Notes under the pieces: model-generated
Seen by the model: the letters and a program-made list of their open reading frames with translations, nothing else
What the model was told of the DNA's origin: nothing
The model's database searches: none
In this document: one piece after another, positions 5,741 through 56,700 of the stretch
Layout of the letters: every line of letters starts with the position of its first letter
Numbering within the stretch: the stretch's first letter is position 1
Translations under genes and position numbers: made by a program
Assembly (NCBI GenBank): GCA_017499595.2
Contig: CM039008.1
Location: 2,852,001 to 2,916,000, forward strand
Source: Psilocybe cubensis
Lineage: Eukaryota
DNA: 64,000 nucleotides
Reading direction: 5' to 3'

Positions 5741-6255
5741 CGATGATCTCCATTGATCGAATTTCTCTTGTTCCTTTGGTGTATTACTATGTTTCGAAGG
5801 AGTTTATCAAATGAAAATGGTTTTGGACAAGGACGACGCGTTATGTATTGATATGATGTGTGAGAGTATGGAAGATGGGTGGGCTTGGTGACCGACCTGA
5901 TACCAGATTAAAGGAGAGTTTATCAAAAAGATTTAGACTACACCTGGATTACTACGTTGGCCCGTTGGCCAAATGTGTTTCAGTTGTAAGTTTTGCACGC
6001 ATTATTCCCTGTTACCTGCGGCTGGCCCGGGCCAGCGTTAACTTTTTAAGGCAGAAACAGTGCAGCCACTGTGCATTTTGTGACAAATTTCCAATGTGGT
6101 TGTTATTTGCCTGTGCCTTGGTTGGTCTATTACAAGCTATAAAAGGGCGTGCATGGCAGGGATGCTGCTGTATTGGTTCATTTTATATCTTCTTCTAGCG
6201 GTCAATTGCAACAAATTTGAGGCTTTTGCTTTTCATTTCGCATAATAAAATCACA

Positions 6256-29397: not shown

Positions 29398-29430
<33 letters not shown>

Positions 29431-36849: not shown

Positions 36850-37656
36850 AAAATGTATATTAATTATGGTCTAATGTTGAAATAGGCTGACAAAAGGGAG
36901 TTCAAACCGATCTTTAAAATTATGAAGGACATGTTTCTACCATGATAATACCATTTCCTAACCCCGTTTATAATACTAAACACCACCAATAAACTCAGTC
37001 AGGCATGAAATGTGCACAGACCTTGCCTGGCCCAATAACTAAATACCATAACCTTCTTCAAACATCTTCAGCTTCAGCCAATGCCCTACTTTTATTAAGT
37101 CGATCGATTGACTAGAAAATATGTATTAGTAGTGGGCACTTTCTACAGGTGTAAATACAGACACGCACCCCAGCTTCAGACTGCTCCATCTTCACCTGAA
37201 TTGCTAGTATTGTCGACTGCAGGGTGCTTACTGTCGACTGTAGGGTGCTGACCGTCGACTGCAGGGTGCTGACTGTCGACTGCAGGGTACTGAGAGCGGC
37301 GGTGGTGTCTCTCTTGTATATGTCAAAATTCTGGCTAAAGGCCTGAAACCAGGCTGGCGCTGTTTCTAAAGGGTAATCATTATGGTAACTCGGTTTCGCT
37401 GCAAAGAGGCTTTAATACCTGCACGGCCAGCCTCTTGCGCAGCCTCTGTATACTTTTCAACGGCCAGCAAAGCAGAATCAAATATTCTGCTGGCTGCCAA
37501 TTCGTCTATAGCTGGCACTAAGCATAGTTAAACTTGTGTAAGGGATGTATCATCGTAACGGGTCGCGAGGCACATACTTCGAGCGCTATCAATATAACCG
37601 TCCAAAGAGACCATGGCCTCCCCAAATTGAAACACTTTGCTGGTTGGCTCTGGCAT
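36850..37656 (-). pseudogene. Small multi-exon coiled-coil protein gene with a (STLQSTV)x4 heptad repeat; probably disrupted
   Basis: MPEPTSK.. | MPAIDEL.. | ETAPAWF..STLQSTV repeats (21-bp unit at 37210-37292) | SIDRLNKSRALAEAEDV-TGA. Downstream exons unreadable. The copia is inserted 54 bp upstream of the ATG. Confidence 0.55.
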
Positions 37657-37709: not shown

Positions 37710-37967
37710 TGAAGGAAACTGAACACGAAATGAGTCTCAACTCAGCTGAAGGAATCAAAGGCTTATATATTGACCTGAACACGAAATGAGTCTCAACTAT
37801 AAACTAGGTCAGCTACTTTCTACGAGTAACAGAATAAGAATGTACCTCAGCTGAAGGAATCAAAGGCTGAGGTACCGAGGCAGAAAGTAGCGAGTATAAG
37901 TGAAAAATTCGTAGCTGAAGAAGTTGATCATGGTCAAGGGAAGGTGATGCGTTGTACTAAAGTGGAA
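37710..37967 (-). repeat. Copia 3' LTR, distal part
   Basis: Matches 58587-58844 with one difference seen (cacgaaat vs cacaaaat). Confidence 0.95.
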
Positions 37968-38271
37968 CACATAAGACAGTTTATTTATAACGTACATTAC
38001 CTAAGATTTAATAATAAGGATATTACGTGAGACACGGTGGATTTACTCCCGCTACCTAATTAGGAGATTAGCGTGATGTACGTGTGATTTATCCTGGCAA
38101 ATCATAGCGTACATGACGTGCCATTTAGCACTAAATGGAGCCGCCGGGTGGCATGCGGGATCCGCGTGTCGGGCTGCACGGGAAAAACACGGGCCGCAAA
38201 TGAACCGGACGGGTCCATCTACATCCCGTGTATTGCAAGCAGACGGATCCGTTTTGACCCGTGTTGTGCTG
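37968..38271 (+). repeat. KDZ left TIR (304 bp)
   Basis: Reverse complement of 53333-53636; no mismatch seen by eye. Confidence 0.95.
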
Positions 38272-38412
38272 AGACGGGTCCATTCATCCACCCGCTTCTG
38301 TATTCCGACAAATATCCGCCTTGAAGAATCATACATCGGATGACCGTTAATATATGTAATAAGGTGTATAGATTATACTGGCAGCACATTCCTTTCCACA
38401 TACCCTGATAGC

Positions 38413-39692
38413 ATGGATTATGCCTTTGAGCTAACCCAATCCCTCTCAAACTACATGAAGGCACAAATAGCTAGTCGTCTTTGGCATGCAGAACTGCCTA
38501 ATCAAATCCGGGAAAACTTCAGTGCTGAGACCATGTTTGAGTGCAATCTAGCTGTGGAGGTGATTTTGCAGGCATTTGAAAATCAAGGTATGCAATCAAT
38601 AAGCTTTGAAAATTGAGATTAAATAATGTGTGAATGGCAGAATATACGACGTGGGATGCAGAAGAATATTTGACTCATCTCAGTGCACGTTGCACGGGTC
38701 AGAATTTTACCGTTGAGGCTCGCCTGAAAGACAAGTTTTCTCCGGTGCATTCCGCGTTACAGTACCAAACCCTGCCCGGAACTGTGGTCGATAGTGCAGG
38801 CAACATATTGGTGTGGTACCTGCCAGGTATTTTGTCAGAGACAAGGGTGGTGAGTTTTAGAAACAGACCAATTAATTCATATATTATGCTTTCTAAAGAG
38901 TAACAGGAGAGTGTGTGGAATTCATTACGGGATATTGAAACAATGATTCACAAGGCGGTACCTTTGGCCACAAGCTGGAGGGTCAATGACAGTTACTTTC
39001 GACATGAGCCAGGTTGGGTTCAACCTGGAAATATTAACTTCTCCCCGGCATGGTTTCAGCAAGGCCATGAGGTGAGAAACTTGTATGCTAATTATTATAC
39101 TGCCTCATATTTTCCTCAGACGTCCAACCCGCTTGAGGTCTCCTTGGACTTGTGTAATCCAATTGGACAGGAGTTTATACGAGACACGACGACATCTTCG
39201 GCTTTGCTGGGAGCCATCTTGAGCATTATACATCCCGAGCAGTACCGGGCGGGAATGAAATTTCTTCAACGGCTTGCTGCGGAACCGGAGCTTGTCCATA
39301 AGGCTGAAATATTGAAGCAAATTCTCACAATTTGGAGTTCGCCCTTTGGAGTCATGACCGTGATCAGCAACCGAGATACACCATACCATCGGGATAATGG
39401 GTCGTGCTACTCATGGTACGATTTTTTGATGCCGCTTGGGAAGGGTGAACACGGACGGCTTGAGCTTCCGGGCCTTGGACTTCGGTACAAGTATGATCCC
39501 ATGACCCTTGTTGCAATTACCGGCAGGTTGCTTCAACACGGCGCGGTGTGCGATGGAGACAGGGCAGTCATAGTCTATTACATGCGTAGGACTGTATTTG
39601 AAGAGCTGGGAGTCCAAGAGGCGGGATGGTCTACTACGTACGATCTTTTTGCAAATTTACCGGCCACCAACGCTTTTGATTTTGAAATATGA
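38413..39692 (+). CDS. TET: TET/JBP-family 2-oxoglutarate Fe(II) dioxygenase (4 exons, apparently intact)
   Basis: VVDSAGNILVWYLPG; PGNINFSPAWFQQGH; HxD in ISNRDTPYHRD; LELPGLG; distal His and Arg in GRLLQHGA..GDRAVIVYYMR. Location in a KDZ element matches known fungal TET/JBP genes. Confidence 0.9.
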
Positions 39693-39919
39693 TCAGTTTT
39701 TGACTTGGAAGTTGGGTTTGGGGAAGATTTTTTTATATTTCCAAACCAAAACAGTACGAAAGCTACAGCACAACCAGAATTCTCTGTCCCAGGGTGTTTC
39801 CGACGCGTCCGCGCTGAGCTCTTCCAAGGTTACCGGAATCATCGGACTCCGCCGTCGTATTACCGGCGGAAAAGGCATCATCCGCCTCCTCTTCGATGTC
39901 CTGTGCGAGAGGTGGGCAA

Positions 39920-41544
39920 CTAAGATTCCTCATCCCAGGGTGTTTCCGACACGTCCTCGCTAAGCTCTTCTGAGTTACCGGAAGCATCTGACTCCTCCGT
40001 CGTATCACCGGCGGAAGACTCCTCATCCGCCTCCTCTTCAAAGTCCTGTGCGAGATGCTCTAAAAACGTAGCTGGTGTAGAGGATTCAGTGGTATCAGAC
40101 GTACTATCAATATCATCCTCTTCTCCCGGGAAAACAGGTCTTGACCTTGCGTTAAAAAGGAAGGCATTGCTGGTGTGTGCATTTGACGGAGGGCTGACGG
40201 AACCGGGCGTAGGCAGAGTATCTGTTGGGAGATGAATATTTGCAGTGTTGGAGGGTGGCGAATGATACCAGAGTGGATGAAAAGGTAGTTCCTTGACGGC
40301 AATAAAAGAATAAAAAATGTCGTTGATGTAAAATGAAGCGACTTTGAGCTTTGAGACCTCGAAGGACCGGGCTTGAGCCGTTATAGCGCCCCAACTGTCA
40401 GGAGAAGGGTGAACGGGATGCTGAAATTTGTATTTGGCTGAAAGCCCCTTGCCGTTAGAGAACGGGAGCTCCTTAGAGTCAATCCACATCTTCTCCAATA
40501 CAGAATATCTGCCCAAGGCGACCGAAGAAGTAGTCACTGCTTTATGGGCATTCTTCATTTTGTCCGCCACATTCCGGCGCAGGTGAGCCAACTCCCTCAT
40601 TACGCCCGTTAGGATAGGCTGACCGCAGCGGGGACAGTAGGGCGGTCTGTGGTCAGAAATTGCAATTGGGGATGTTTCATCCCGCGTGTTTGCAACACGG
40701 GTCGGCGGATTGGGTTTCCCCGTGGGCGGTGAAAACGCGGAGCCGTGCTTTCCCGTCAACGCGGATCCGTGCTTCCCCGAGGTGGGGACGGATGTCCGTT
40801 CAGCCGCCTTTCCCTTGCCCTTGGGATTGTTTTCTTGATTTCTTGGAGGCCCAGAGGTGGATGAACTTGCGCCCTCCTTAGCTTCTTTCCTCTGATTGTT
40901 TAGCCGGAGTACCTCTTGTTGGTATTCAGGCAGAACCACCTGGTGGGAAGGACGCAAATCAGATATAATCCACAGCAATAAAAAAACATACCTTGTTCCA
41001 AAATTCTCTTGCTTGCGATTCAACGGTAACAAAGGCAACTTGCCACTCATCGCCTTCAGCAAATCCGTCCCTCCACCAATATCCCCAGCTCTTGGTCTGA
41101 TTTAAAATTTCATCATCTTCCCATGCTGACCAGCTTTGATTTAGAGATTCAAATAGAACAGCTCGATGGTGGGGAGTTCGGTTCAAAACGGCATGTACGC
41201 TCTGATTGAGAATTTCTGATATAAAAAATGGAATATCGACTTGGAATCCATTGACATAGCAGTATCCGAGTACTCTCAGCAGTATAGCCTATCGAGCAGT
41301 TCTCAATGCAAGATATAATAGTTCAAAATTACTGTCTTACCACCTCTAGGTCAAGCAAATACATCCATTTTTGGCGACGCACGGAGGAAACAGAGTCTCC
41401 GTTTGCAATGAACAAACGGTATCCGGCACGGATCCGTGCACCACAAATATGGACATGAACTTTGGCCAGAGCACGTCGCTCATCATAGGTAAGGAGATGA
41501 TGTTCGTCCTCGACAGGAGGTTTAAAAAGCCGCGGTAAGTGCAT
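39920..41544 (-). CDS. KDZ cargo protein of unknown function (CxxC motif, acidic C-terminus; multi-exon)
   Basis: MHLPRLFKPP..LLDLE | ..SWSAWEDDEILNQ..EFWNK | VVLPEYQQ..YCPRCGQP..EEEADEESS..WDEES. GT-AG introns. Start codon uncertain. Confidence 0.65.
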
Positions 41545-41588
41545 GAATTCAACAAGATGAGATACAACAAGAATGTTCAAAGAACTGG

Positions 41589-44500
41589 TTAATCTGTAAT
41601 TATAAATCTCCACACGGACGGATACTCCGGGTTAATTTGACGGAAGACCTTATCCGCGGCCCGCCCCAGATCATTCCACATGGCAATCTGCTTTTGAGCA
41701 TTTGCCCTGTGACCAACTAACCTGTCAGGAACAAAATCATGCCGTGCACGCCATGTCTTTGCCATATACACATAAAATCTGACAGTCCATTCCATTTCCT
41801 TTTTTGTCAAGGCCAGCTCCTCTTGCCATCTATTCCTCTGAGCTCGCGCGCGGAGCCAGTTTAGCCTAAAGACTAAGAAGCCCTTGAGAAAAAAATTAGA
41901 AATACAAATAGCAGTACTCACACTCATTAACGTATAATTGATTATCATTGTCCAGGCCCTGACGGGATCTCCAAATCCAACTTAGACGGTCCGAGCTTCC
42001 TCCGCAAATGTTCGGATCCGACACGGCATTACTATGCTTGCAATCATGGACTTGCAGAATGGGATATTGTTTCCGAATATTATCCTCGTCTCGCACGCCA
42101 GCAGATAAATAGATCATCTTCTGACGGTTTGTGTTGTAGAGTCGCCGGTGCAATTTCCAGGAAGCATTCAAAAGCTTGACGCCATCCCAAGCACGAGTCC
42201 CCATATAGACGGAGTCGGCGGTCCGAACCTGATATTTATACTGCCAAGAAAGCTGGATCAAGGCTGACCGGACCGCTTCCAGACAGTCCTCTGCGTGGCC
42301 ATGTCTTATTTGAAGTTCAAGTTTGCGAAGCCCTTTTAAAATGAGGTTTGTTCCCGCGTCAAGGCCGTCAAAGAAATCTTGTTTGACGGCGGAGGGAAAC
42401 GGAAGCGGCTGTCGTTCCGGATCCGCGCGGGTAATGTTGACATTTCCAAGATCAGGATCGTCGTTGTCACTGACTTCATAGTCAAGTATGGGAGCGATGT
42501 CCCCTTGAATATCCTCCAAGACATCTTCGCCCATGAAGGTCATAGCGGATCGACAGAAGGCTTCAACGCGGGTCCGCATGGAGCGACGTTTATTGACCAA
42601 GTCAAGTTTCTGCGCGGTGGAAGGATGCTTTCCGAGCTTTCTGACATGGTCCCTGAGCTCCAATCTAAAAACATGTTAAATTCTGTAGGATGCAATTGAA
42701 ATAATCGTACTGCGCTTGCTCCAGTTTTAAGCCGGATGATATCCATGCTGCCTTTCCAGTAGCACCATTAGATGTAAGTTCCATATTTGAAAGATGCAAT
42801 TCAATTTCTTGGCGTCCAGCAGCCGTTTTCACTTTGCTTGCCATTACCTTGCCAACAGCGTCGGCCACACCTTGTTCTCGGTCCGCTTCTGCTTTTGAAA
42901 TTTCATCTTCCCAAGTGTTGATGAGCCCGGAATCTTGTTGATCCGTGATACCCCTATAAAATCGGTCTGTGATTCCGGACTGTTCCCGTGCCCGTTTGAA
43001 CTTTGCAGCAATTGTTGCAGCCATATTAATGGTCTTCTTCCAGTTGGAATCCCCCATGTGGTCGTCCAAAACCTCTGCTCAATGGGCAGTGGTAGCGGAA
43101 CGTGTACTCCGGGATGTGTCATTTAACACGGACCACAACGGCTCCAGGATTTCTCCGTCAATGATTCCCACACCCGGGACATAGGTGGATGCGTAGTTGT
43201 AAAGACATTCCGTCTTGTGCCCGTGGACGTGAAATAAACCAATTGCAAAAATCATTTTAACAGAAGGTGGCCAATGCATTTTTGTGGACTCTGAGAGACG
43301 CCTTGCCAAGTTAACGCAATATTGACAGTTTATATCGTAGATTTCCAAATGTTTTGTGATTCCCTGTGTGTTGGTAGTTTCCCTGGCCTGAGTCAAAGAC
43401 CAATCCATGTGCATCTGCTTTTCACCTTTGTCAAAATCGACAACGCTGGATGGACAGAAGCATCCGTGCCTAGCGCAAGCGTGTGCCCCAATTCCACGTA
43501 CTCTCTTACCCGGGCTGACTCTGTTTTCAGCTTTCTGGGCGTGGTAGTTATGACATGTTTGTTCCTGATATTTTTTGACACGGAAAGTAAGCATCCGCCG
43601 TAGAAGATTTTGACACGGAGCGTAAGCATCCGCCGTGAAAGATAAATCATGGTAGATAACGCACCCGTTTATAACGTGGAGCAAGAGAAATTGCTTCCTT
43701 AATGTGCTCCTTGTAAGGGCCCGGAGCAGTCATGTATCCTTCTCCAACGCTCAACCAAACATCGTCTCCCTCGTTTTTCTGATTGAGGTGATCTGCTTTG
43801 AAATTACCATCTGCAACATAACTACGTATGTACAGATTGCTACTTGCTGTTAATTGCAGTCACCCTTGAAGAATAACTAAAACTTGCCTATCAGCATCAT
43901 CAATCCAGGTATCAGGTAGGTTTATTCCAGGCTGTGGACAGGCGGGGCAGAATAAGGCCAACTTCCCTCTCCTATCTTCAACTTCGGGATGATCCTCGGT
44001 CCGCGTCATTTGTGGTACAGGCGGACCATCTAATCCGCCGTGTCCCAGAGACGGGTCCGTTGACATTCCGACTTCTTGAGACGGACTATCAGATCCGCCG
44101 TCAATTGGATCAGATACATTAATACCCATCCTCTCTGGTGATGAATCATGGCAATGACGATAGTAAGGGACCACCGCTTCTCTTGTATGCCCTTCTCCGT
44201 ATTGTCGTCTCAGGACAAGGTCCCTGTATTCTCTACTAAGCCTTCTCAATTCACGATAGCGGTTCAGCACCTTTTTTGGAAACGCTGGCGAAGTCAGTCT
44301 TCGCAACTTTTGGTAATACTGATAAGCCGACGTTTTGCACTCGAGGTTGTCCATCCGAAAGTCCTCAAGGACCTCAACTGTGAACACAGTTTGAACGTTT
44401 TCAAAGCTGGCTGCAAATAATCCCATCTCCAGATACTGTAAATCGATAGACGGAAGGCGGACGGACCGGCATGTGCATGTTCGCACGGGCAGATAATGGA

Positions 44501-45472
44501 CTCCGGAGGTGTGCACAATTGCCTTGAAAGGAATTCCATTGTTGTCTGCTGCCTTTGGACGAGGTTGGTCCAGATAGGTTGTATCGACTTCCTCGAATAG
44601 ATCATCGTCTTCATCGTCTCCATCGTCCAGCTCAACCAAATGGGGTACCTCCGGGTCCGCCAGAAGCTGAGCCGTAAAGGATTCTTGGTCATTGCTCGCA
44701 GGAAGCGGATCCAGGTCCAATCCGTGTTCATCTTCAAAGACGGGCGAATTGTTTCCGCCGTGCCCATGACTCCCGGATGAATTGTTTCCGCCGTCCCATC
44801 CTAGGTGGCTCGGATCCGTGGGATAAGGACAACGTTTCCCATTATGACCCAAATACAACTTGACACCCACTTCCCACAGAGCTCCCGGACGGAAATATAG
44901 ACCCGTCCACTTCTCAACGCGGTGGAAAGGTGTAAATTGATGGTTTCTTCGCAGGCATTCAGAACACAAAATTCTAGAGCCAAAGCATTGGCAACATCTC
45001 CACACTCCAGACATTCCTTGACATTGCTGACACTGTCCATTCAGATCCGGATCCGGGGCTTCTCCTCCAATCATTGTTCCAAGATACACCTCTCGTTTCG
45101 GGAGCCATTCCCTCAGGTAATCATTTTGAGACTGGATAGGTAAAGTCATCCTGATCATTCTACTGAAAACATGTTAAAACATACCTTTCCTCCCGTTCTG
45201 TCGTCATCTAGCTGTCTCAGGTTATCAAGTACCTGCTGATCAGTTAGATCTCCCGGATAATGAGGTATTTCTTCTTCCAGAATGTTGTGTTCATGGTTTT
45301 GGAAAGAGTAAGTCGTTGTTTGAGGGAGGTTTGTTGATGATGATTCTGCAGGAAGTTTGTGGATCCTCGGCCGCCCTCTCTTTCGTTTCTTGGCCCCACT
45401 AGACCAGGAGGCCTCCCGAACATTGGGAAACTCCTCATCCGATCCCCTATCAGGTACTTTCTTGAAGCCCAT
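41589..45472 (-). pseudogene. CxC2-KDZ transposase (about 6 exons) with one premature stop at 43079-43081
   Basis: CQQC..CCQC..CSEC..H..PFHRVEKW; VHTSGVH..CTC (CxC2); LFCPACPQPGINLP; DGNFK; CARHGCF..VDFDKGEK; YDINCQY; FHVHGH..C; DGEILEPLWS; H-TGA-AEVLDDHMGDSNWKK; NWLRARAQRNRWQEE. Confidence 0.92.
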
Positions 45473-46351
45473 GGATGTTGGAAACAAAGAGTCTGACAGC
45501 CTGTGAGCGCAGATCTAAATGTAGTATAACATGTTTATTTCTGTAGATAAATTTCCCTCAATTATGCCGTTTTAAAGAGGAGAAAAATAGCTTTCATATG
45601 ACTTATCTTGCAGCATATTTGGATGAGTGAGTGAAATGTTATGAACAAAACTTAATCCAGAGATGCACAAAATGGACGTGATCCCATCATAAATGTACAA
45701 TATGATGCAGAACGACCCTTTCAGAACCACACTTTGGAGTGTTTTTGAAATATCTTTTCACTGGCTGGCCCCTCATTCCTCCGGCGTATATCATATGAAA
45801 GATATTTTTAATAGCTACCGAATGACATTTTTTGTAGAATGTGAATCCTCGTATTTAAGGAGATATTCTCAATATACTAGAAAATGTGTCAAAATGAGCT
45901 CACTGGGATCATTATATTTTTTGAAAAAAATTATGCATTTGAATACCTCTCATGGTCTCTGAGATGACTGCCGTTTTGGGTTTCACAAGTTTTGGGTGAG
46001 AAGACGTGAATTTGCATTTTGTGTTTCTGTATCTTTACAGCCATCTGACAAGAATTTAAAACCTTGTAAAATTATCTTTATATAAAGCGCTAAATGTTTA
46101 CAAAATTCCATGTTTATTGATTGAATGCAGAGGGAACTATTGCAAAATCATGAGGTCAATGTATGTGACAGCGACCAGCATGCTTTGATCATCGTGGCCG
46201 ACGATGAAGCGGGATTACCTGATTGGGAAAAATATGACATCACATCATTTATTTAGTATGATCGGAAGCTTATTTTATCTCCGTATAACGTGAGATTTGA
46301 CCAGATCACACAGATACTCATCGATAAGCTACTTGTTACATCACTGCAATT

Positions 46352-48662
46352 ATGCCCACCAATGCATCCCCCGACGCGGATCCGCTTCCTTCTACCGCAA
46401 ATGCCACAACCCACAACGGACCCAGAAACGGACAGACGGCGGAGGGTGACTTTCCGCCGGAAGAATCAAATATTTGGACAACAAAGGAAATGCGCGTGTT
46501 GAAAAAGCATGTACAGCCCTACAAAGATACATCAAAGTCATCCAAAGCAGACTACATACAGAACACTGTCATACCTGAGCTGCAAGCTACATGGGATCAC
46601 AGATACTCTAGACGTGCTAGGAAGGAAGATAAGCAACTACACAAAGAATGGAAGGTGAAGAAGCATGTGAGCTCGTTGTTTCTTTGAAAATTTTGTTACA
46701 CACATAAACCATCACAATAGCGAATATTTAATTGGTTTAGAAACCATGCGTCAAATCGAATTGGTGTAAAATTGGAAGGATTGAACTCCCGTATAACCTT
46801 TCAGACGGTATTCCGTGAGGAGAAGTCGGCAGAGATTGACTCCGAGGTTGCGCTTCTATCAGGGAATGCTGCTCGTGGAAGTAAAGATTGGATGAAGTTT
46901 TATCAACAAGGACGTAAGCAGGTTGAGGCCAGATTGACTCAGGAGGAGCGGGACAGGTTCATGGAGATCCTCGAGGAATGGAATAAGAAAGGTGTTTCAA
47001 AATCAATGAAGGCAAAGTGAGTCGGTGGAACTTGTTTCCGCCGTCAATCTGACATCTGCAGGACTGCTGCCAGGCAAGGCAGAAAAATACTTCGACAAAT
47101 GGAGAAACTTAAGTGGCAGAGAATGGGTATGAGGTCCATTACCTTTGAGGGGCATTATGATATTGAGGGTAAAATCGAATACTCAATGTAAGTGTTAAAC
47201 ACGGCATGAACAAGTTCCGCCGTGAATGCTTACGGCGGAAACTTTATCCGCCGTAAACACCCTACGGCGGATAAAGTTTCCGCCGTAAGCATTCGCGGCG
47301 GAATAATTTGGCCCGTATTAATGTTGACTGATGGGCATTGAAGGACCCAGACAAGCGATCTAGCACTCGACGATGTCAGAATTCCTTCCTTTGGGCAACT
47401 CTTTCCATCCGAGTTGGCCGCTTTTCGCAGAGCGTTTGTTCAATACCTCGTCCACATTTCAGAAATAGAGAAGGGTGTGGCCAATCCAGCACTGCCAGAT
47501 GCATCGTTTCATGAAAAATCCCTCAAGTTTAGCAGCAATGGATTTCCAATAGTACCTAGTCCTATCTATGGCTCAACTGGGAGAGAAGTCGCTTATGCAC
47601 AAAAGTCAATTATTAGAATTTACATGAACAAGGTTTATGGTGTGTAATTTGTCTATGTCCTCAACAAACTTGCTAACTATGTATACAGCTTTAGCCAAGG
47701 ACAGGCCTGGTTCAAGTGTTCCTTGGGATGCTCTTGAAAGGCGTTCTGCAGAAATGATTGATCCAGAGTATTGGCCAAGTTCAATCCCCGTGACGGATCC
47801 GAGCCGGCTCCGCCTGGAGTCAACCTCTGCAATTCTCAAGCTATGGAGGGACCGTCAAGCCCAAGGAGACATCCCCTTTAAATTTTCAAAGGTTTTTGGA
47901 AATGGCTATGATATTATGGAACCTCTCTATCCGTCCAACTTGTTTGACGGCCTAGAAGCCCACCCGATACCTCCACCTCCTGCAGCAATAACCAAACGTC
48001 GCCTGAGGCAAAAAGCTATACGACTTCAAACCCAATCTTCAAGCGACTCTGAATCATCCAATCTGTCAGAGTTTGATAATGGACGGGGCAGTCCGGCATC
48101 CGCGATGCCACGCACTACTGCCAGATTTGAAGTCACGCCAGAGACGGATGAGACTCCTACCGACGCACCTTCAAGATCTAGCGAGCCACCCTCTCTACCA
48201 AGTAGATCCAGCCCAACAATTGTCAATCCATCATCCAGCCCAACTCCAGAGGTTGAGGAGGCGCCTCCCAAGCCAGCTAGAAAGATTATGCCAAGAAAAA
48301 GAACAAAGCCATATGTCGGAACGGCGGAAATGGACGGACCCGATGAAGAGAGTTCTGTACCCCCCCCAGTTAAGCCAAAACCAACTAGAAGGATTCAACC
48401 TAGGAAAAGAACAAAGCCCTACTCAGATCCACTTGACACAGTGGAAGAAGATGGAGTCCAAACAGGAACAACCCAAGACACGGATAATACACGGGCCGGC
48501 AGGGACGTGACTTGTGATGCCTTTGTGGAGACAGTAACAAGTCCAGATACGGATGAAACACGGGCCCGCAGGAATGTGACTTCGGATGCCTTAGCACTTC
48601 AGGAAGCAAGTCTGCTTGCTGTAGCAGGTAAAAGACAAAGAAAAAAAACTTTGAAAGCCTAG
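46352..48662 (+). CDS. KDZ-associated nuclear protein with helical/HMG-like N-terminal domains and an S/P-rich basic tail (5 exons)
   Basis: WTTKEMRVL..RIFNWFRNH; WMKFYQQGRKQVEARLTQEERDRFMEILEEWNKKG; VPWDAL..IDPEYWP..DPSRL; NLS-like KRQRKK. The HMG label rests on resemblance plus the known TET-transposase-HMG gene linkage. Confidence 0.7.
47215..47303. repeat. Intronic palindrome with 41-bp arms and a 7-nt loop, built from CCGCCGT motifs
   Basis: ttccgccgtgaatgcttacggcggaaactttatccgccgta-aacaccc-tacggcggataaagtttccgccgtaagcattcgcggcggaa (1 mismatch). Confidence 0.93.
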
Positions 48663-48927
48663 CTGTTGAAGTAGATTCATGATACCTATTGAATGTGATG
48701 CTTTTTATTCTTATCTTGATGTTTCTCAAACATGTTTTCACACAAAATCAAAACAGAAAGCGGGTTCATTAAAAATCATCAAGTGCTACTTTTTGGGAGA
48801 GATATAAAACAGATGAGCACATGAGAGTAAAAACTATATACAGTCCAAATATTAAAAATTGTACAATGCAATCTATGAGACAAGGCAAAAAAGGAGACCA
48901 AAAAAAGTTACAAAGATTTGAAATACA

Positions 48928-51505
48928 CTACTTTTTTTGGGCCTTGGGTTTTTTGGGCGAGCACGATGCTTCAGCCAGAGTCGTTTCCGCCTTTCGCTTC
49001 CGTCCAGCCCTTGTCTTTGTGGCTATGTTCGACGCGGGCAGCGTGGACGCCACGATCTCAACATCCTCCTCCACAATTTCAACCTCGTCGCTGTCCGAGG
49101 GATCAGACAACTCCGATGAGTGTCCATTCCCGGATGGCCCAGCCTTGGAGGATGGCTTAGCCTTTGACAATGGCTTAGCCTTTGAGGATGGGCCGGCCTT
49201 TGACGATGACGATGGCGCGGCCTTTGACGATGGTGCACCCTTTGACAACGGTGCGGCCTTTGACGTCGAACTTCGAGGACGTGGAGCTGGGAGAGGGGGT
49301 GGTGGAGACAGGGAAAGGACGGGTGGTACCGGTGGGAGCGAGGGTCGGCCAGCTGGGGGGGGCGAAGGCGCTTCTGGAGTCGAACCGGGCAAGAATAGCT
49401 CTATTGGTGGCGCAGACACGGCAGGGAAGACGGGTGCGGGTGGAGGTGGGGGTGGGGAAGGGAGGACAGGTGCTGGCGGTGGTGGAGGAGGGGAAGGGAG
49501 AATGGGTGCTGCTGGAGGTGGAGGTGGGGAAGGGAGGGGTGCTGGCGGTGGTGGTGGGCTGGGGGATTGTGGCGCAGAGGTGGGTTCACGGGTCCGCGAC
49601 GGACCCGATTCTTGTTCGACCTCCGTCTTGGAGGGTTCTGCTGCCTGTTTGGGGGCGGGATTCCTTTGTTCATCCTGCTCCAGCAAAACCCCGACCACGT
49701 ACTGAACGTCCTGGATCGCCTGCTTGATGTTGTTGAACATCGTGACGGAAAGCGAAGTGTTTCCTGCCACTTGTTCTTTTGCCGTGGTCCACTCGGCCTT
49801 CAGCTCTTGGAAGCTGTCCTCGACGGTCTTCATCCTCTTCTCCACCGCCAAGTTTGTCTCGGCGAACGTTGCAATCCGTGCGTTTATCGCCGTCATGGAC
49901 GCGGAAAGGCCATCCATCCGTTCCATCAGTCGGCCTTGTCGCTCAAACAGCTGCACAAGCAGCTCTCCCACATCCTCGGGGAACGACCCTTCCCCGGCCT
50001 TCCCCTTCGCCGGAACATCCTCTCCCTCCTCCAACTTCAACACCTCCCCGTAACTTCCCAGCGGCGTCGAGAGGTTGAATTGCCCGGCGACAGTGTTGCG
50101 TCCCGGGTAGAAACGTCCCGGGTAGAAACTGCAGTGAATCTTGCGAGACTTGCAAGACTCGCAAGATTGGTGCTTTACGGGGACGAGAGGCTCAGTGCCT
50201 GTCTCTCCCTTGACATGGCACGGCACCTTGAATTTGGTGCATCCCGTGCACCTTTCCACCATATCCACCATCCCCTCCGGCACCTGGCGCGCTTTCTCGG
50301 ATCTCGACCGCGCCTTCCTGATGGGGGGGATATTGTCCTGGTTGGCGTCCTTCTTTGCAGACCGGGTGAGCATCTTCCGGGTGGGGGTGGTAGGCGAGGC
50401 CTCTTGGTCATCGCCTTCGTCGTCCTCGTCGACGTCGGCGTCCGCGTCTTCGTCCGTGTGGCTTCCTATGATTGCTTTGCTCTTGAACTTCCCCTGCTTG
50501 GACTTCGCCAATCTTTCCAGCTTCTCCCTGTACGCTGGGTGACCAGGCATGTTGGAGGCGGTGATGTGGGGAATGATTTCCCCCTTCCTTGTCCGTGGGC
50601 CCCTGTAGTCCGCTGGAGCCAACTGAATGGACTCCACGGGGTCCGCCGCTTTCCGTTTGCCCTTGTCTTTGTGGGCGTCTGTCACGGGTCCGTCTTCCAC
50701 CGGGGGTTCGACTGCCTTGCCCTTGCCCTTCTCGGCCCGTCTCTTCTCCGTCTCCTCCTTGTTCCTCTCCTCGTCTGTCTCCTGCTCCTGCTCCTGCTCC
50801 CTCTTCCTCCTCTCCTCCGCCTTCTGCCTCTCCTGCTCCCTGGTCTTCCTCTCCTGCTCCCTCTTCCTCCTCTCCTCCTTCCTCCTCTCCTCCACCTTCT
50901 GCTTCTCTTCCTCCCTCTTCCTCCTCTCCTCCTCCCTCTGCCTCTCCTCCTCCTCCTCCCTCTGCCTCTCCTCTTCCTCCTCCCTCTTCTTCTTCTCCTC
51001 CCTCTTCCTCCTCACCTCCCTCTTCCTCCTCTCCTCCACCCTCTGCCTCTCCTCCTCCTCTTGCTCCTCCTTCTCCCTCCTCTTCTCTTGCTCTTCCTCC
51101 TCCCTCCTCTTCCTCTGTGCCTCCTGGCCTTGCTGGTATGCCTTGAAATTTGCGACTTGATGATGCAAATTTGCCCAGTCGACCTCGAACCTTGCTACCT
51201 GCTTGCCGTCCTTGCCCTGGCTGGTCTTGTATGAATACACGACAGGGCTTGCGACATAATCCACGAGGCGGAAGTTGGCCGCGTCCCTGACGTGTTCTTG
51301 ACACAGTGGAACCTATTTGGATGAATTTTTTTTGTTCAGTAAGTCTTATGCTCAAGGGATATCGATTACTCACCAAGTCCCTGTAGAGCTGCTCCAACTG
51401 AGCGTTGAACGCGCTTTCGCCATTGCGGTAGCACTCTGTAAAGGTTTTTTCCCAGTCAGCAAGGCGTTGGGCGAAGGTGGCGGTGGTGGAAGATGAAGAG
51501 GCCAT
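48928..51505 (-). CDS. KDZ cargo protein: E/R/K single-alpha-helix/coiled coil, Zn2Cys6-like cluster, coiled coil, polyproline, NLS (2 exons)
   Basis: MASSSSTT..LYRDL | intron ~51313-51373 | long ORF with CTGCTKFKVPC-x16-CESCKSRKIHC, then heptads (LMERMDGLSASMTAINARIATF), PSPPPPP repeats and PKKPKAQKK. Confidence 0.8.
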
Positions 51506-51734
51506 TGGGAAAGCGTTTTTTTTGGGGGGGAAGACGCGTTAATGGGTGAGGCACGGTAGAACGTGGGGTGGTGATCGTGGTTGGAGTTAGTCTAAAAAAA
51601 GTCTAAAAAAAAGCGGTCCCGCAAAACAAAACCATACACAAACATGTACAATCTGAGTCATGTGATTTCTTCACCAGATCCAGTTTGTGCAAAAGTTGCT
51701 AAGTTCGATACACGGGTGAATCTATTTCCGTGTC

Positions 51735-53239
51735 ATGGAGAATCCTAGGATAGTATTGTATTCCGTGAGATATATAAACAAGCCCACCCAGTTGCACTTT
51801 CTGGACTGTATGTCCTCCTACAACTTTATTCCCACCTCTAGCAAAAATTCCCCCATTGACTACACCAGTCTCAACAATCTTACCAGGCTTCTCGAAAAAC
51901 TGAAGGAACCTCCTCCCGTAAAACCTATAAAATGTAAGACTAATTGCATTAATTCAAGTAAATTTAAATTGATTTCTGAGCATCAGCAATGTCTTCAAAT
52001 ATTAGCAACTCTAAGGAAAGCAAACGCACAGCAAGGACGGATGACCTGGCTCCGCCGCCAATGCCAGTCATTCCAGATAACCTGGCTCCACCCCCTATGC
52101 CTGTTATTCCAGCTAACCTGGCTCCTCCCCCTATGCCAGTCATTTCATCTAACCTGGCTCCGCCCCCTATGCCAGTCATCCGGAAAGACCTGGCTCCGCC
52201 GCCAATGCCAGTAATTCCAGCTAACCTGGCTCCACCCCCTATGCCAGTAATTCCAGCTAACCTGGCTCCACCCCCTATGCCTGTTATTCCAGCTAACCTG
52301 GCTCCGCCCCCTATGCCAGTCATCCGGAAAGACCTGGCTCCGCCGCCAATGCCAGTAATTCCAGCTAGCCTGGCTCCGCCCCCTATGCCAGTCATCCGGA
52401 AAGACCTGGCTCCGCCGCCAATGCCAGTAATTCCAGCTAGCCTGGCTCCACCCCCTATGCCAGTCATTCCAGCTAACCTGGCTCCGCCGCCAATGCCAGT
52501 CATCTGGAACGACACGGCTCCGCCGCCAATGCCTGTCATCCGGAACGACTTGGCTCCGCCGCCAATGCCAATCATTCCAAATAACCTAGCTCCTCCCCCT
52601 ATGCCTGTCATTCCACCTACCCTGGATCCTCCCCCTATGCCTGTTATTCCAGATACCCTGGATCCTCCACCTATGCCTGTCATCCGGGATGATGCGGCTC
52701 CGCCGTTGATGGCAGCACATGTTTCATACACGTCTGTCGTCGACAAAATCATTATGGACTCTCGTCCAGCTATTTCCTCTGAGAGGAAGCAAGGTCGCTA
52801 TTCTCCACCCCCTGAAGCATGCCACCTGCTCCTTCAAAACCCTTATTTTCGAACCTACGGCAGGTTTGATCCCATGGGCGGCTACCCCGGTTCGCCTCCC
52901 ACCCAGTCTGACATTGAGTTCGAGAATGTAACAGATCAGACGGCGTATTTTAACCCTCCTTTTCTATATGTATGTACTCAGATATTACCAAGCACTAGAT
53001 ACTGACAACTATTTTAGAATTATACCGAGCAGCAGCTACGGGCAACATACGACCAAATAATTGACAGTTCCGTCGGCGACAGTAGTTATGACGGAAAGGT
53101 TACAACGTTCAAGAACCTCCGGCTGCATCAGCTGCAGTCAGAGATTCTGACTTATAATGCGCTGGAGGAAATTGACGCTGGGCTGGCAGGGATTGAATCG
53201 AGTTTGGAAAAGCATTTGTATACCGGTAGAGATGAATAA
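51735..53239 (+). CDS. KDZ cargo protein with a 12-aa Pro-rich tandem repeat (3 exons)
   Basis: Exon 1 to 51935 splices in frame into ORF 51989. (LAPPPMPVIxxx) repeats. Intron ~52969-53017; last exon ends YTGRDE-TAA. The start could instead be 51810. Confidence 0.75.
52040..52710 (+). repeat. 36-bp coding minisatellite, 18 full units plus 1 partial
   Basis: Consensus unit approximately aacctggctccgccccctatgccagtcattccagct. Confidence 0.95.
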
Positions 53240-53332
53240 ATTATTTTTGGAGCCCTTGTGCTCATTGACTTGCAATACCCCATAAATAACCCTCCCTCTC
53301 TGGGAAGACACGGGTCAAATGGGTCCGTCTGA

Positions 53333-53636
53333 CAGCACAACACGGGTCAAAACGGATCCGTCTGCTTGCAATACACGGGATGTAGATGGACCCGTCCGGT
53401 TCATTTGCGGCCCGTGTTTTTCCCGTGCAGCCCGACACGCGGATCCCGCATGCCACCCGGCGGCTCCATTTAGTGCTAAATGGCACGTCATGTACGCTAT
53501 GATTTGCCAGGATAAATCACACGTACATCACGCTAATCTCCTAATTAGGTAGCGGGAGTAAATCCACCGTGTCTCACGTAATATCCTTATTATTAAATCT
53601 TAGGTAATGTACGTTATAAATAAACTGTCTTATGTG
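53333..53636 (-). repeat. KDZ right TIR (304 bp)
   Basis: Reverse complement of 37968-38271. Confidence 0.95.
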
Positions 53637-53780
53637 AGTGGAAGAAGAGTTTCTCAGTCTGGAAGATGAACAGGGGAAATCGGCTCAACGACCCGATGAC
53701 GAGAAAGGAATCTTTGAGGATAAAACAGAAATAAAGGAGTGAAAAGAATGGAAAGGGATGAAAAAACTTGTATTCCAACA
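53637..53780 (-). repeat. Copia 3' LTR, proximal part
   Basis: Matches 58838-58981 with one difference (aaaaaactt vs aaaagactt). Confidence 0.95.
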
Positions 53781-53790: not shown

Positions 53791-56700
53791 ACGCATCGCC
53801 TGCTGAACCTTCTTGGGAGCAACCAGACCCAAGCGAGTAACGCCCTCAAGAAATTTGACGCGCTGAAGTGGTTTGGTGAGAATGTCGGCAGGGTTGTCTT
53901 TACCCGGAATGTGCAGAATGTTGAAGGTCTTGGCCTCAATGTGAGATCGAATGAAATGGTAACGAATGTCTATGTGTTTAGCTTTCGAATGAGAGGAATC
54001 GTTTTCGCACAGAGACTTTGCACCTTCATTATCGGTCGCGACGACGAGAGGATTTGGGCAGGTGATGTGTAAGTATGACAGTGAAGATCCCAGCCATAAA
54101 CCCTCTTGGACGGTACGCGTTAGCGCAATATATTCCGACTCTGTCGAGCTAGTAGATATGCATGTTTGCGTTTTAGAAGACCAGCTCAGAGGGCCCCCAG
54201 CAACCATCCAGACGAAACCTGAAACAGAAGCACGAGACTCCCTATTGCCAGCCCAGTCGGCGTCCAAGTATCCCTGTAGAGTCTGCGAGGAGGCGTCTCC
54301 ACCATAATGTAGGCAATAATCTTTTGTCCCGCTGAGATACCGCAGAACACGTTTAGCAGTAGCAAAGTGACGAGGGGAAGGGTTTGAAGCATGCTGAGAC
54401 AGTAGAAGAACAGCAATTGAGATGTCGGGGCAAGAATGTCTTTGCAAGAAGAGGAGGGATCCTATCAGCCGTTGGAAGGTGGCCTTTAGATCAGGTATAT
54501 CAGGGAAGGTGTCCGTGTCGCGTCCAAAAATGTTGTTGGCGTCAAGTGGGGTAGATACAGGGCTGCATTCTCTGAGACCATATTCATCGAGAATGTTTTT
54601 GATGTACGGCTGTTGATGGATCCATACTTCTTGAGTGCTCAAGTTCCTCTCGTATTGCACTCCCAGGTATGAACGTAAAGGTCCCAGGTCCTTGATACCA
54701 AAACGTTGATTGACTGCCAATTTCGCATGGTCGAGGAACGATTTGGAATTGGATGCCCCAAGTCCGTCGTCTACGTGGATGCACAACCAGCATTGGACGT
54801 CTTCGCCGTTCCAGATTCCCTCGAATATGAAGGTGGCATGGTCCTTTTCTGAGCGTTTAAAACCTATGTCTTGCAGGGTTGAGCGGATTAATATGTACCA
54901 GACGCTGCTTGCCTGTTTTAACCCATAGAGTGATTTTTTCAACCTCCAAACACCCTTTGTAAAAGGCGACGAGTAGCCAGGGGGGCATCTCATGTGAATG
55001 ACCTCTGTCAAGTCGCCCCAGAGGAAGGCTCTCGTGGCGTCAAAGCACTCAATGTGCCAACCTTTCAGGACCGCATGAACAACAATTGCTCGAATGCTGA
55101 CGGATTTGGACACGGGCGCGAAGGTCTCATGATAATCTATGAGGTATTTCTGAGAAAATCCTTGAGCAACTAGCCTGGCCTTGTATACAAGTTGTCCCTG
55201 ATCGTCCATCTTGAACTCAAAGACCCATCGACATCCTATGCAGTGCATGCCATCTTGAAGCTCCTCGTCTGTGTAGACACCCATCGAGTTGAGCATGTGC
55301 AATTCTTTCTTGATGACCTTTCACCACTGATCGGCGTCGGGGTGCAGCATGGCCTCCTGATAGTTGGCAGGTGGTATTTTGAGATCATAGTTGGGAGAGA
55401 GAGGATTCCGTTTGCGATCGCTCCTGACTGAGAGCAGAATGGCCTCGAAAAATGCGTCTTTGTCTCGTGAGAGATAGTCTTCAACGTCGAGCGAAATGAG
55501 AGAGGTGTCGATGACTTGAGAGGGAGAAGGTTCTAACGTTCCAACGGAGCAAAGTGAAATGAATGGGTTTTCAACGTCACCCCCTTGCTCGTTGGAAGGC
55601 TGTATACTCAACAAACGTTCAGCACTCGTTGCCCGTTGCGAAGCAATGATTGATTCACTTTTTGCTTTTTCAGCCTCGCGCAGTTGAGAGTATAGGATAC
55701 CTCTCGAGGATGGATGACGTTCGCAAGAGGATGATCGAGGTGGAGGAAGTACACGTTGAGGAATGGGGGTAGAAGGAGGAGGAAGAGGATTAGATGTTAA
55801 AGGAGTGGAGGGCACAACCTGAATATCTACAGAAGATGAAGAGGAAGAGGAAGAGAGGTTAGAAGAAGTGGAAGGTTTAAGAAGTTGTGGAGAATCTAAA
55901 TCGGAAGGCGAAACTACAAGATTTGGAACAGCTGAAGCGGGGGCAGAAGGAGAAGTGGACGAAGAAGAAAATACATCTGGTTGAAAAGGCAAAGAGGAAT
56001 AGTCTATGGGAGCAGAATTGTAATTACCAGAAACAAGCGAAGGTACATTTTCATCAAACATAGCATTTGAGGAATCAAAAAAGTGTCCGGATTCAAGATG
56101 TCGAAAACGATAGCCTTTCCCACCAGGTGGATATCCCATAAATCTGCATTGTACAGATTTAGCCCCAAGCTTTAGTTGCTACTCCTCTGGAACATGAACA
56201 AATGCTCGACAGCCCCATACGCGAAGATGCAAGAGATTCGGTGGACGATGATACATATTTTCAAAAGGTGTGATGCCATCTTCATCTGTGCTGGTAATGT
56301 TGAGCAAGTAGGATGCCGTAAGTGCCGCCTCGCCCCAGTAAGTCATGGAAAGTTGCACGGTGGTCATCATGGCAAGCATCCTGCCTTGAATTGTTCGCAT
56401 GAAACGTTCGATTTCTCCGTTCATCCAATGTTCACGCGCCGGAGTAACCTCCTGTTCAATTCCAACCTCCAACAGGTAAGCAGAGAAAACCCCCTTCCAC
56501 TCAGGCCCTCCGTCGCAGCGAAATCGTTTGATTTTGAAGCCGGTGCGGGTTTCCCAGCGAGCCTTGACGATCTTGAACGCTTCCAACATAGTCTCAGAGG
56601 TTTTGTCAGCGGTGAGTTGAACGTTGTTGATCTTCATTCCTGAGCATTGAAAGGCTACGAAAAACTCTTTGTGGTGTGGGGTCTGAACTGGGAAAGGTCC

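Follow-up and report, generated by a model that had tools for sequence, protein, structure and literature searches.

A Kyakuja (KDZ) transposon of 15,669 bp occupies positions 37968-53636 of the 64,000-nt stretch of Psilocybe cubensis DNA analysed here (contig CM039008.1, assembly GCA_017499595.2), which we refer to as the window and in which all coordinates are given. The element carries short paired-CGG words, dispersed over its terminal inverted repeats (TIRs) and most of its gene bodies, together with a gene for a protein, ZNC, that may bind them. The TIRs (37968-38271 on the + strand, starting with CA, and 53333-53636 on the - strand) are 304 nt long each and 100% complementary, and the element is flanked on both sides by the 7-bp target-site duplication (TSD) AGTGGAA (37961-37967 and 53637-53643), with ends reading CACATA...TATGTG, i.e. 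CA...TG. An empty site is seen in a contig of run X9 that joins 37960 to 53637 with 7 letters shared, so that the insertion is polymorphic; the right end adjoins at least six different flanks within the same run, and the element is present, whole or in part, in runs under six organism labels. Since the TIRs are identical and the empty site is polymorphic, the element is very young, and it is mobile. No related sequence was found elsewhere in the window with blastn and tblastx.

The 7-bp TSD and the CA..TG termini agree with the description of Kyakuja by Kojima 2025 (PMC12730594, section 3.2.1), and the KDZ transposase and a TET protein of the AG type are further likenesses to the TET-positive Kyakuja elements reported there. 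Two Laccaria families in that paper, Kyakuja-1/2_LB, are described without TIRs, unlike the element in the window with its perfect 304-nt repeats; the absence of TIRs is probably a description of these two families, and not a defining trait of Kyakuja.

The transposase gene (39923-45514, - strand) is multi-exon and encodes CxC2 and KDZ domains (Pfam CxC2 1.5e-21 and KDZ 4.8e-33, the latter reaching 7.9e-41 with the full model P0004) and a long C-terminal extension. The TET/JBP dioxygenase gene (38634-39692, + strand, ~333 aa; Pfam Tet_JBP 9.5e-19, match at 38904-39689) has a frame that is intact after removal of a 57-nt intron (38850-38906), which spans an in-frame stop. The HRD and the downstream His of the HxD...H motif are present in the translation, and the product is, as predicted from these features, a Tet_JBP 2OG-Fe(II) oxygenase of the AG type. 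Oxidation of 5-methylcytosine (5mC) is known for CcTET (PMC12730594, section 4.2). The PLUS gene (46352-48659, + strand) encodes a conserved Basidiomycota protein of ~668 aa without a recognised fold. A first-pass annotation of this DNA had called it HMG-like, a label for which Pfam, the atlas and the sequences of the PDB offer no support: neither its open reading frames (ORFs) nor the full 668-aa model matches a Pfam family at E<=0.01, in the atlas it matches nothing but unnamed clusters of Basidiomycota (best 0.94, 264 members), and a PDB profile search returned no relative (best E=0.16). The ZNC gene (48931-51510, - strand; model P0001, 838 aa) encodes a Zn-cluster-like protein.

Paired CGG sites in the element and in related families

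The palindrome CGGATCCG had been reported in the first-pass annotation to occur ten times in the element and nowhere else in the window, and both statements hold: it is found at exactly those ten positions, with 0 copies in the rest of the 64 kb. Two copies occupy the same position in the left TIR (38244-38251, with a CCG at N12 after it) and the right TIR (53353-53360), and the flanks of the copies are otherwise unrelated. The eight internal copies are exonic, as had been claimed, but they lie in two genes instead of three, because the transposase gene runs on through the frame 39923-41101, which forms its C-terminal part both in the annotated model P0004 and in a Flammula homologue (P0008). 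Six of them are in the KDZ gene, at 40762-40769 (C-terminal low-complexity region, Gly-Ser register), 41429-41436 (Arg-Ile-Arg in the annotated model), 42013-42020 (Ser-Asp-Pro), 42418-42425 (Ala-Asp-Pro, the Asp-Pro being conserved in homologues), 44811-44818 (hypervariable linker, Thr-Asp-Pro) and 45048-45055 (N-terminal variable region, Pro-Asp-Pro). The other two are in the + strand PLUS gene, at 46377-46384 (N-terminus, Ala-Asp-Pro) and 47794-47801 (Thr-Asp-Pro, conserved in the paralogue P0129).

The expectation given for this word, ~0.24 copies, is of the right size, since Markov models of orders 1, 2 and 3 in the element yield 0.23, 0.48 and 0.54. Models of orders 4-5 no longer flag CGGATCCG, which we do not take as a refutation because they are trained on the same ten copies and absorb the signal. 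Shuffles of the window that keep dinucleotides give a mean of 0.75 copies and a maximum of 4, and 0/100 reach ten. Loss of the enrichment under a codon-aware null had been named beforehand as grounds for rejecting the idea; with synonymous codons shuffled, pooled or per segment, the eight coding copies compare with a mean of 0.45-0.80, and 0/1000 shuffles reach eight. The claim of a DNA-level signal is thus upheld, the enrichment surviving this null and being confined to the element.

All three coding registers occur among the internal copies, as stated in the annotation, but they are not evenly used: six of the eight read x-Asp-Pro (NCG-GAT-CCG), with one Gly-Ser and one Arg-Ile-Arg. The Asp-Pro dipeptide itself is not enriched (20 seen, ~20.6 expected from composition), and of twelve Ser/Thr/Pro/Ala-Asp-Pro tripeptides, six are encoded by exact CGGATCCG and two by its GAC variant. 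Because the palindrome of a related locus (L013, see below), CGGCGCCG, prefers the same register in 4/6 copies inside transposase high-scoring segment pairs, the x-Asp-Pro preference suggests which register the proteins tolerate. When homologues are compared by eye, the copies at 42418, 42013 and 47794 fall on conserved Asp-Pro positions, and those at 45048, 44811, 40762 and 46377 in hypervariable or low-complexity stretches.

These copies are part of a larger set of words. The variant sites listed in the annotation are present, apart from two positions that were off by one base: the transition variant CGGGTCCG/CGGACCCG has 7 copies inside the element and 0 outside it in the window, and CGG-RY-CCG has 18 inside and 1 outside by hand count. 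A second dispersed word, ACGGCGGA/TCCGCCGT, has 17 copies inside and 1 outside, and under the codon-aware null ACGGCGGA is found 10 times against ~0.5 expected (0/1000 shuffles). Eight of the 17 are intronic, in tandem or inverted arrays. One array consists of two 35-bp repeats (43573-43642), each with TCCGCCGT and a CGG-N11-CCG pair, and in runs X9-X12 it has 25 extra letters at 43571-43584 that represent a third 35-bp unit carrying TCCGCCGT, so that such arrays vary in copy number between copies of the element. Another (47216-47303) has six ACGGCGGA/TCCGCCGT units in alternating orientation, with 41-nt inverted repeat arms. The recurring half-site unit is e.g. caCGGg or gaCGGa, and the density of ACGGR is 7.08 per kb in the element against 2.63 outside, being 6.99 in coding and 7.39 in non-coding parts of the element.

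The arrangement of CGG triplets was then compared with 200 dinucleotide shuffles, with three tandem coding arrays masked. Inverted pairs are observed 23 times at spacing N2 and 29 times at N12 (2.4 expected for each), and direct pairs 29 times at N8 (4.9 expected) and 25 times at N0 (4.4 expected). In the spectrum of distances between CpGs, inverted pairs have peaks at 6 and 15-19, and direct pairs have theirs at 3 and 10-11; 11 and 16 are not multiples of three, and one helical turn separates N2 from N12. Under a codon-aware null (9,402 coding nt, 500 shuffles) the excess persists for N2 (20 against 2.6), N12 (14 against 3.0) and N8 (21 against 4.8; 0/500 each) and for N0 (12 against 4.8; 2/500), N11 is not significant (36/500), and two control spacings are not enriched. 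As the total of CGG and CCG in the same coding nucleotides is barely raised (331, with 303 expected), while specific spacings are up by a factor of 5-8, the triplets are unusual in how they are arranged and not in how many there are. The central dinucleotide is also sharply non-random, being AT in 10/25 cases in the window element and CG in 29/32 in L013, and the base after CpG favours CGG (1.40 in the element, 0.81-0.90 in its flanks).

The density of ACGGR half-sites differs strongly along the element. It is highest in the TIRs, at 23 per kb (59 CGG/CCG per kb), where the sites crowd into the inner half and the outermost ~60 bp has no CGG. The gene bodies of KDZ (8.4 per kb), ZNC (7.8) and PLUS (6.5) are intermediate, the TET exons (2.8) are at the background found outside the element (2.6), and the lowest values are those of the AT-rich divergent promoter between KDZ and PLUS (1.2) and of the 3' spacer between PLUS and ZNC (0). 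Because density is lowest in the promoter and high in TIRs and gene bodies, the sites are not promoter elements; in their distribution they resemble subterminal binding sites that would extend through most of the element body. The background density of the TET exons could mean that TET was captured when the element was already 'coded', which accords with the evidence of Kojima for moves of TET between transposon families.

In order to see whether each family pairs with its own word, as the annotation had suggested, metagenome contigs were scanned with a transposase alignment, which gave 80 loci (named by the letter L and a number, their contigs being partial), 23 of them at least 8 kb long and representing 20 families. 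Many of these loci have their own dispersed, CpG-containing over-represented word across the contig. In L013 CGGCGCCG has 29 copies against 0.30 expected (P=5e-41), seven of them at 5391-8849, the span of the transposase match; other words are AGTCGGG in L002 (29 copies), ACTCCGA in L007 (21), TCGGCGGA in L043 (10), CGGCGTTG in L046 (10) and GCGGCGGT-type words in L060/61. Four equal-sized non-element pieces of the window gave best words with P of only 2e-6 to 2e-4, none of them with a CpG.

Pair geometry, counted as enriched at z>=6, gave the same picture: the element and 13/23 loci, from 12/20 families, pass this threshold, and 0/4 controls do (maximum z 3.9). At the DNA level the idea of an own motif per family therefore stands for 12 of the 20 families, and for the other eight z=6 was not reached. 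The geometries include inverted N2 (window element, L013 and L035), direct N1 (L002), direct N4 and everted N1 (L010), direct and inverted N0 (L043), direct N9 (L046) and direct N15-16 (L061). In L058, L031 and L015, CCGCGG is enriched (22-30 against 1.6-2.7 when both strands are counted, which corresponds to 11-15 sites), and these three loci share half-site words such as GACGGG. CGG is the top context after CpG in 14 of the 23 long loci.

Arrays of motifs occur in several related loci. L002 has an array of 117-bp units at 2160-3051, each with AGTCGG-N5-CCGACT, and L061 one of ~80-110-bp units at 16258-17041, each with CGGATCCGG; both resemble arrays of subterminal repeats. In L002 there are, in addition, inverted arms of 79 nt (326-404 and 16736-16814), and in L021, L022 and L023 arrays of CGGCGCCG lie downstream of the genes.

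The ZNC protein and its gene neighbourhood

The ZNC protein comprises, in this order, an N-terminal region, a charged repeat region, a Cys cluster, a helix with the sequence GELLV... and a Pro/Lys-rich tail. The cluster (50131-50250, - strand) has six Cys in the pattern C-x2-C-x6-C-x18-C-x2-C-x6-C, a permuted Zn2Cys6-like domain. The annotation's reading of this gene as encoding a Zn-cluster-like protein is supported by solved Zn2Cys6 domains: a profile of 12 families, searched against all PDB sequences, matches LEU3 (E=1.9e-5), LAC9, AlcR, RSC3, GAL4, PPR1, PUT3, HAP1, Pho7 and Cep3. Matches with E<0.6 are LEU3 (two sequences), LAC9, AlcR, RSC3 (two), GAL4 (two) and PPR1, and unrelated Cys-rich proteins appear only from E ~0.9. 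In the alignment the triads of Cys are swapped, the second triad of ZNC pairing with the first of LEU3 and the first with the second, and the loop between triads has 18 residues in the window and 7-18 across families. The six Cys are the only invariant positions across families that are 14-25% identical to the window domain. The residue at +4 of the second triad is Lys in 10/12 families and Arg in 2/12, a position that we take to be that of the CGG-contacting Lys18 of Gal4. On this profile evidence the six-Cys domain is related to the Gal4-type Zn2Cys6 DNA-binding domains, with its triads swapped. A putative coiled coil follows the cluster, in a region with the conserved GELLV helix and with weak Pfam matches to coiled-coil families (residues 117-181 of the fragment, E 0.05-0.18).

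Close relatives of ZNC are few, namely three proteins in a word-index search, all from P. cubensis, and five representatives among 1.84 billion. A tblastn search with the P. cubensis protein found no homologue in 35 loci of at least 5 kb. We do not take this blank as evidence against ZNC, since the domain is found in 13-14 loci by a regular expression for the Cys pattern and by a hidden Markov model (HMM). The regular expression finds an open frame in 14/80 loci and none in the reversed loci or in five triplet shuffles, and in the whole window its sole match is the ZNC gene; the HMM, built from 12 families, finds 13 loci and the window, and 0 in the reversed control. The regular-expression match in L078 was not confirmed by the HMM.

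The gene order of the window, read along the opposite strand as ZNC(+), PLUS(-), KDZ(+), TET(-), recurs in L007 and L052, and partial versions of it are found in L002, L010, L015, L017, L004, L013 and L046. The transposases of these loci are only 31-45% identical (best segment) to that of the window. Because gene order is conserved despite such divergent transposases, ZNC is, judging from this synteny, an old component of Kyakuja elements and not a Psilocybe-specific cargo. L021-23 have a different order, KDZ, TET, ZNC on one strand, with ZNC downstream of TET and a nearly canonical 7-residue loop.

Possible readers of the sites

We propose that the ten copies of CGGATCCG are the most conspicuous part of a paired-CGG code, specific to the family, that would run across the element, densest in the inner TIRs, intermediate in the bodies of the transposase, PLUS and ZNC genes, where it would be written through codon choice, and scarce in promoters. 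The pairs would be bound by a dimeric protein that the element itself encodes, most likely the product of the ZNC gene. Dense sites would mark the DNA of the element as 'self', and binding would serve the assembly of a transposition complex and/or relief from silencing by CpG methylation, with the TET of the element as the likely effector. Zn-cluster proteins bind as coiled-coil dimers to CGG pairs in inverted, direct or everted orientation, with a spacing set by the linker and the coiled-coil dimerisation element: inverted N11 for Gal4, direct N6 for Hap1, everted N4 for Leu3 and CCGCGG for Pdr3 (PMC10954478). A protein-site pair is the most economical reading, because a family-specific CGG geometry is found with a fast-evolving Zn2Cys6 relative in the same module. 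That the ZNC product binds the paired-CGG sites of its element is nevertheless tentative, and in our estimate not quite as probable as its opposite. Recruitment of TET through this binding would be a further and doubtful step. In Laccaria the genes marked by 5-hydroxymethylcytosine (5hmC) and 5-formylcytosine (5fC) are mostly transposases and 2OGFeDO genes (PMC8889193), so such elements are indeed oxidised. The best overall reading is that of a self-recognition system like those of TnpA and VANC in plants (see below). Its fullest form, in which a permuted Zn2Cys6-type protein brings TET, and perhaps the transposase, to the family code, so that a family could demethylate itself without de-repressing competitors or the host, we consider unlikely.

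Several observations weigh against this reading. As regards ZNC itself, the canonical pattern C-x2-C-x6-C-x5-12-C-x2-C-x6-8-C, with triads in the order A then B, is not present, and the Pfam Zn_clus cutoff of 21 is missed by ZNC (19.4) and by 10/10 other families (best 19.1), scores that lie below threshold because the triads are in swapped order; P0127, a distant homologue, does reach 21.7, but with a match confined to positions 1-15 of the profile. The gene was captured in only 9/20 long families, most others having less than 5.5 kb upstream of KDZ, and it is missing in 4/11 loci with at least 6.5 kb upstream (L033, L056, L060 and L061). On these partial contigs, CGG-pair enrichment is found in 6/10 loci with ZNC detected and in 7/13 without. 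A G>A change at 38251 in a minor contig, among the 40 variants listed out of 586, destroys a TIR copy of CGGATCCG. As regards the TET step, the TET exons are at background half-site density, and enrichment is found in 9/15 loci with TET and in 4/8 without detectable TET. Because enrichment occurs with and without TET and the TET exons are uncoated, the code seems to be a feature of Kyakuja elements in general, and TET may be an addition to it. An accessory factor of the TnpA kind would account for the density peak in the TIRs at least as well as a pure guide for TET, and Kojima 2025 reads the oxidised-mC data as action of TET that is not target-specific (PMC12730594, section 4.2).

A serious alternative, though on balance a rather unlikely one, is that the Kyakuja transposase itself, through its Cys-rich N-terminal or CxC2 region, reads the sites as subterminal repeats and ZNC does something else; the internal copies would then reflect a transcription-activating or DNA-coating activity of the transposase. 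It is the only protein in all 80 loci, although these were found with it, and the peak in the TIRs, the arrays near contig or element ends (L002, 2244-3041; L061, 16258-17041) and the CGG-pair enrichment where no ZNC gene was captured (L043, L060/61, L035) all speak for it, as does the finding that the AtMu1 transposase alone activates its cognate copies sequence-specifically (preprint 10.64898/2026.08.24.746577). However, palindromic CGG pairs of fixed spacing are the signature of Zn2Cys6 dimers (PMC10954478), a relative of which is encoded in the same module. The Cys and His of the transposase are invariant across families, which leaves no obvious source of family specificity. Moreover, a catalytic transposase is expected to bind the outermost TIR, and the outermost ~60 bp has no CGG.

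Zn-cluster factors are abundant in fungi, and the element might instead have accumulated sites for a host Zn2Cys6 factor, e.g. a Sef1-like one, to exploit host regulation. The C. albicans Sef1 site TTCGGATCCGAAATCCG does contain CGGATCCG (PMC12501418, citing Chen 2011). Nevertheless, we find this explanation quite improbable, given that the sites are scarcest in the promoter and between genes (0-1.2 per kb) and lie in exons and TIRs, that families in other hosts differ in geometry, and that the element encodes its own candidate DNA-binding protein. Alternatively, no protein would read the sites, and they would be a by-product of context-dependent CpG methylation, decay, repair or another mutational bias. 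The bias of the CpGs of the element to CGG, shared by 14/23 long loci, is what such a process would leave, but it would have had little time for decay in a very young element, and it would have to raise specific spacings 5-8 fold with CGG totals barely raised, make the central dinucleotide sharply non-random and give different geometries in different families; we regard it as improbable. A role at the RNA level, e.g. long-range pairing between copies in a transcript, is suggested by the palindromic nature of the 8-mer, which makes each copy complementary to every other one in the same RNA. It appears highly improbable, since the copies are in genes on both strands and in TIRs, direct CGG repeats and N12 pairs have no RNA-pairing logic, and 8 bp is a weak duplex.

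Comparison with known systems and other features of the locus

Transposon-encoded sequence-specific regulators with co-evolving motifs are already known from plants. VANC, from the Mutator-like VANDAL elements of Arabidopsis, binds a short motif that is dense only in its own VANDAL family and causes loss of methylation; its motifs (YAGTATTAY) are in non-coding regions and introns, in arrays of the same orientation (PMC5735166). The Kyakuja elements are like this system in that a protein of the element is proposed to bind a short motif, specific to the family, that reaches its high density nowhere but in the element, in that related families have different motifs, and in that tandem duplication alters the arrays (the 35-bp repeat in the intron has two units in the window and three in other copies). 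Unlike the VANC motifs as reported, the Kyakuja sites are mostly in exons and TIRs, contain CpG and are often palindromic, the candidate binder is Zn-cluster-like, the element carries its own 5mC oxidase, and hypomethylation is a proposed effect.

TnpA of Spm/CACTA elements offers a second comparison. Arabidopsis TnpA binds clustered CCVTCGCAAA motifs at the Spm termini, its binding causes CG hypomethylation that needs the host ROS1/DML glycosylases, and the motifs are family-specific across 12 Spm families (preprint 10.64898/2026.08.24.746577, section 4 for the binding). Common to both are an accessory, non-catalytic DNA-binding protein (a candidate in our case), clustered family-specific CpG motifs concentrated at the termini, co-diversification of motif and lineage, and a link to active DNA demethylation (proposed in our case). 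As described in that preprint, however, TnpA is transposase-derived, exploits glycosylases of the host and takes effect at the termini only, whereas the Kyakuja candidate is Zn2Cys6-like, TET would come from the element and the sites extend through gene bodies.

With Gal4-type factors (LEU3, GAL4, PDR3, HAP1, Sef1) ZNC shares the six Cys, probably a coiled coil after the cluster, and presumably also a basic residue at the position of the CGG-contacting Lys. The sites likewise match those of such factors, which are CGG pairs in inverted, direct or everted orientation with a factor-specific spacing (PMC10954478): the CCGCGG enriched in L015, L031 and L058 is of the Pdr3 type, and the CGGATCCG of the window element is like the Sef1 site. 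In contrast to these factors, ZNC has swapped triads, a loop of 7-18 residues and Pfam scores below threshold, no fungal-specific transcription factor middle homology domain was found in it, and its gene is carried by a transposon, the body of which, and not host promoters, it is proposed to target.

The main text of PMC12730594 does not contain the terms 'zinc', 'HMG', 'subterminal' or 'binding site', and describes no dispersed internal motif. In a wider literature search, the scope of which did not include Iyer 2014 or supplements, neither motifs dispersed within KDZ elements nor an accessory protein of the Zn-cluster kind carried by them was found described. Searches for CGGATCCG with zinc cluster gave only the Sef1 paper, those for KDZ with Zn2Cys6 and transposon only an unrelated paper, and those for transposable elements and methylation in Psilocybe cubensis nothing relevant. 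The system proposed here would thus be a fungal variant, with a different DNA-binding fold, sites that overlie exons, and a 5mC oxidase of its own.

As to the use that fungal transposons make of the TET they carry, the latest survey leaves the function unvalidated and speculates that there is no target specificity (PMC12730594). Our analysis offers a testable alternative to non-specific action, in the form of a candidate binding protein, a set of defined DNA words and a pattern that emerges from comparing 20 families. A conserved Kyakuja module of four genes, one of them encoding a permuted Zn2Cys6-like protein, is also identified, and the analysis shows that a DNA-level code can overlie protein-coding sequence across a whole 15-kb element. 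If the pairing of protein and sites is real, these proteins would be natural, compact and programmable binders of CGG geometries coupled to a 5mC oxidase, and a fungal counterpart of the anti-silencing by VANC and TnpA in plants; a Kyakuja element with such a binding protein and its own TET would be self-sufficient.

Other features of the element include a cargo ORF made of 36-bp tandem repeats (51980-53002), which is open on both strands. The repeat tract itself (51899-52810) has ~25 head-to-tail copies of the 36-bp unit, encoding NLAPPPMPVIPA repeats on the + strand and GIGGGARLAGIT repeats on the - strand, and no Pfam family was matched on either strand. The N-terminus of the transposase (P0004 residues ~28-40, ~45400-45440, - strand) has the sequence KKRKRGRPRIHK, which we take to resemble an AT-hook or a nuclear localisation signal.

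The right flank of the element is a Ty1/copia-type retrotransposon (53791-56178, - strand; Pfam RVT_2 3.3e-50 and a retroviral polymerase SH3-like domain), so this Kyakuja copy sits in or beside another transposon. About 700 bp to the left of the insertion site, at 37191-37293, a 21-bp unit (GTCGACTGCAGGGTGCTGAC-like) is repeated in tandem, with four to five copies. Further to the left, the region 24000-31000 has an extreme strand asymmetry unrelated to the element, with GC up to 0.57 and, at 26-28 kb, a GC skew of up to 0.52 and an AT skew down to -0.38.

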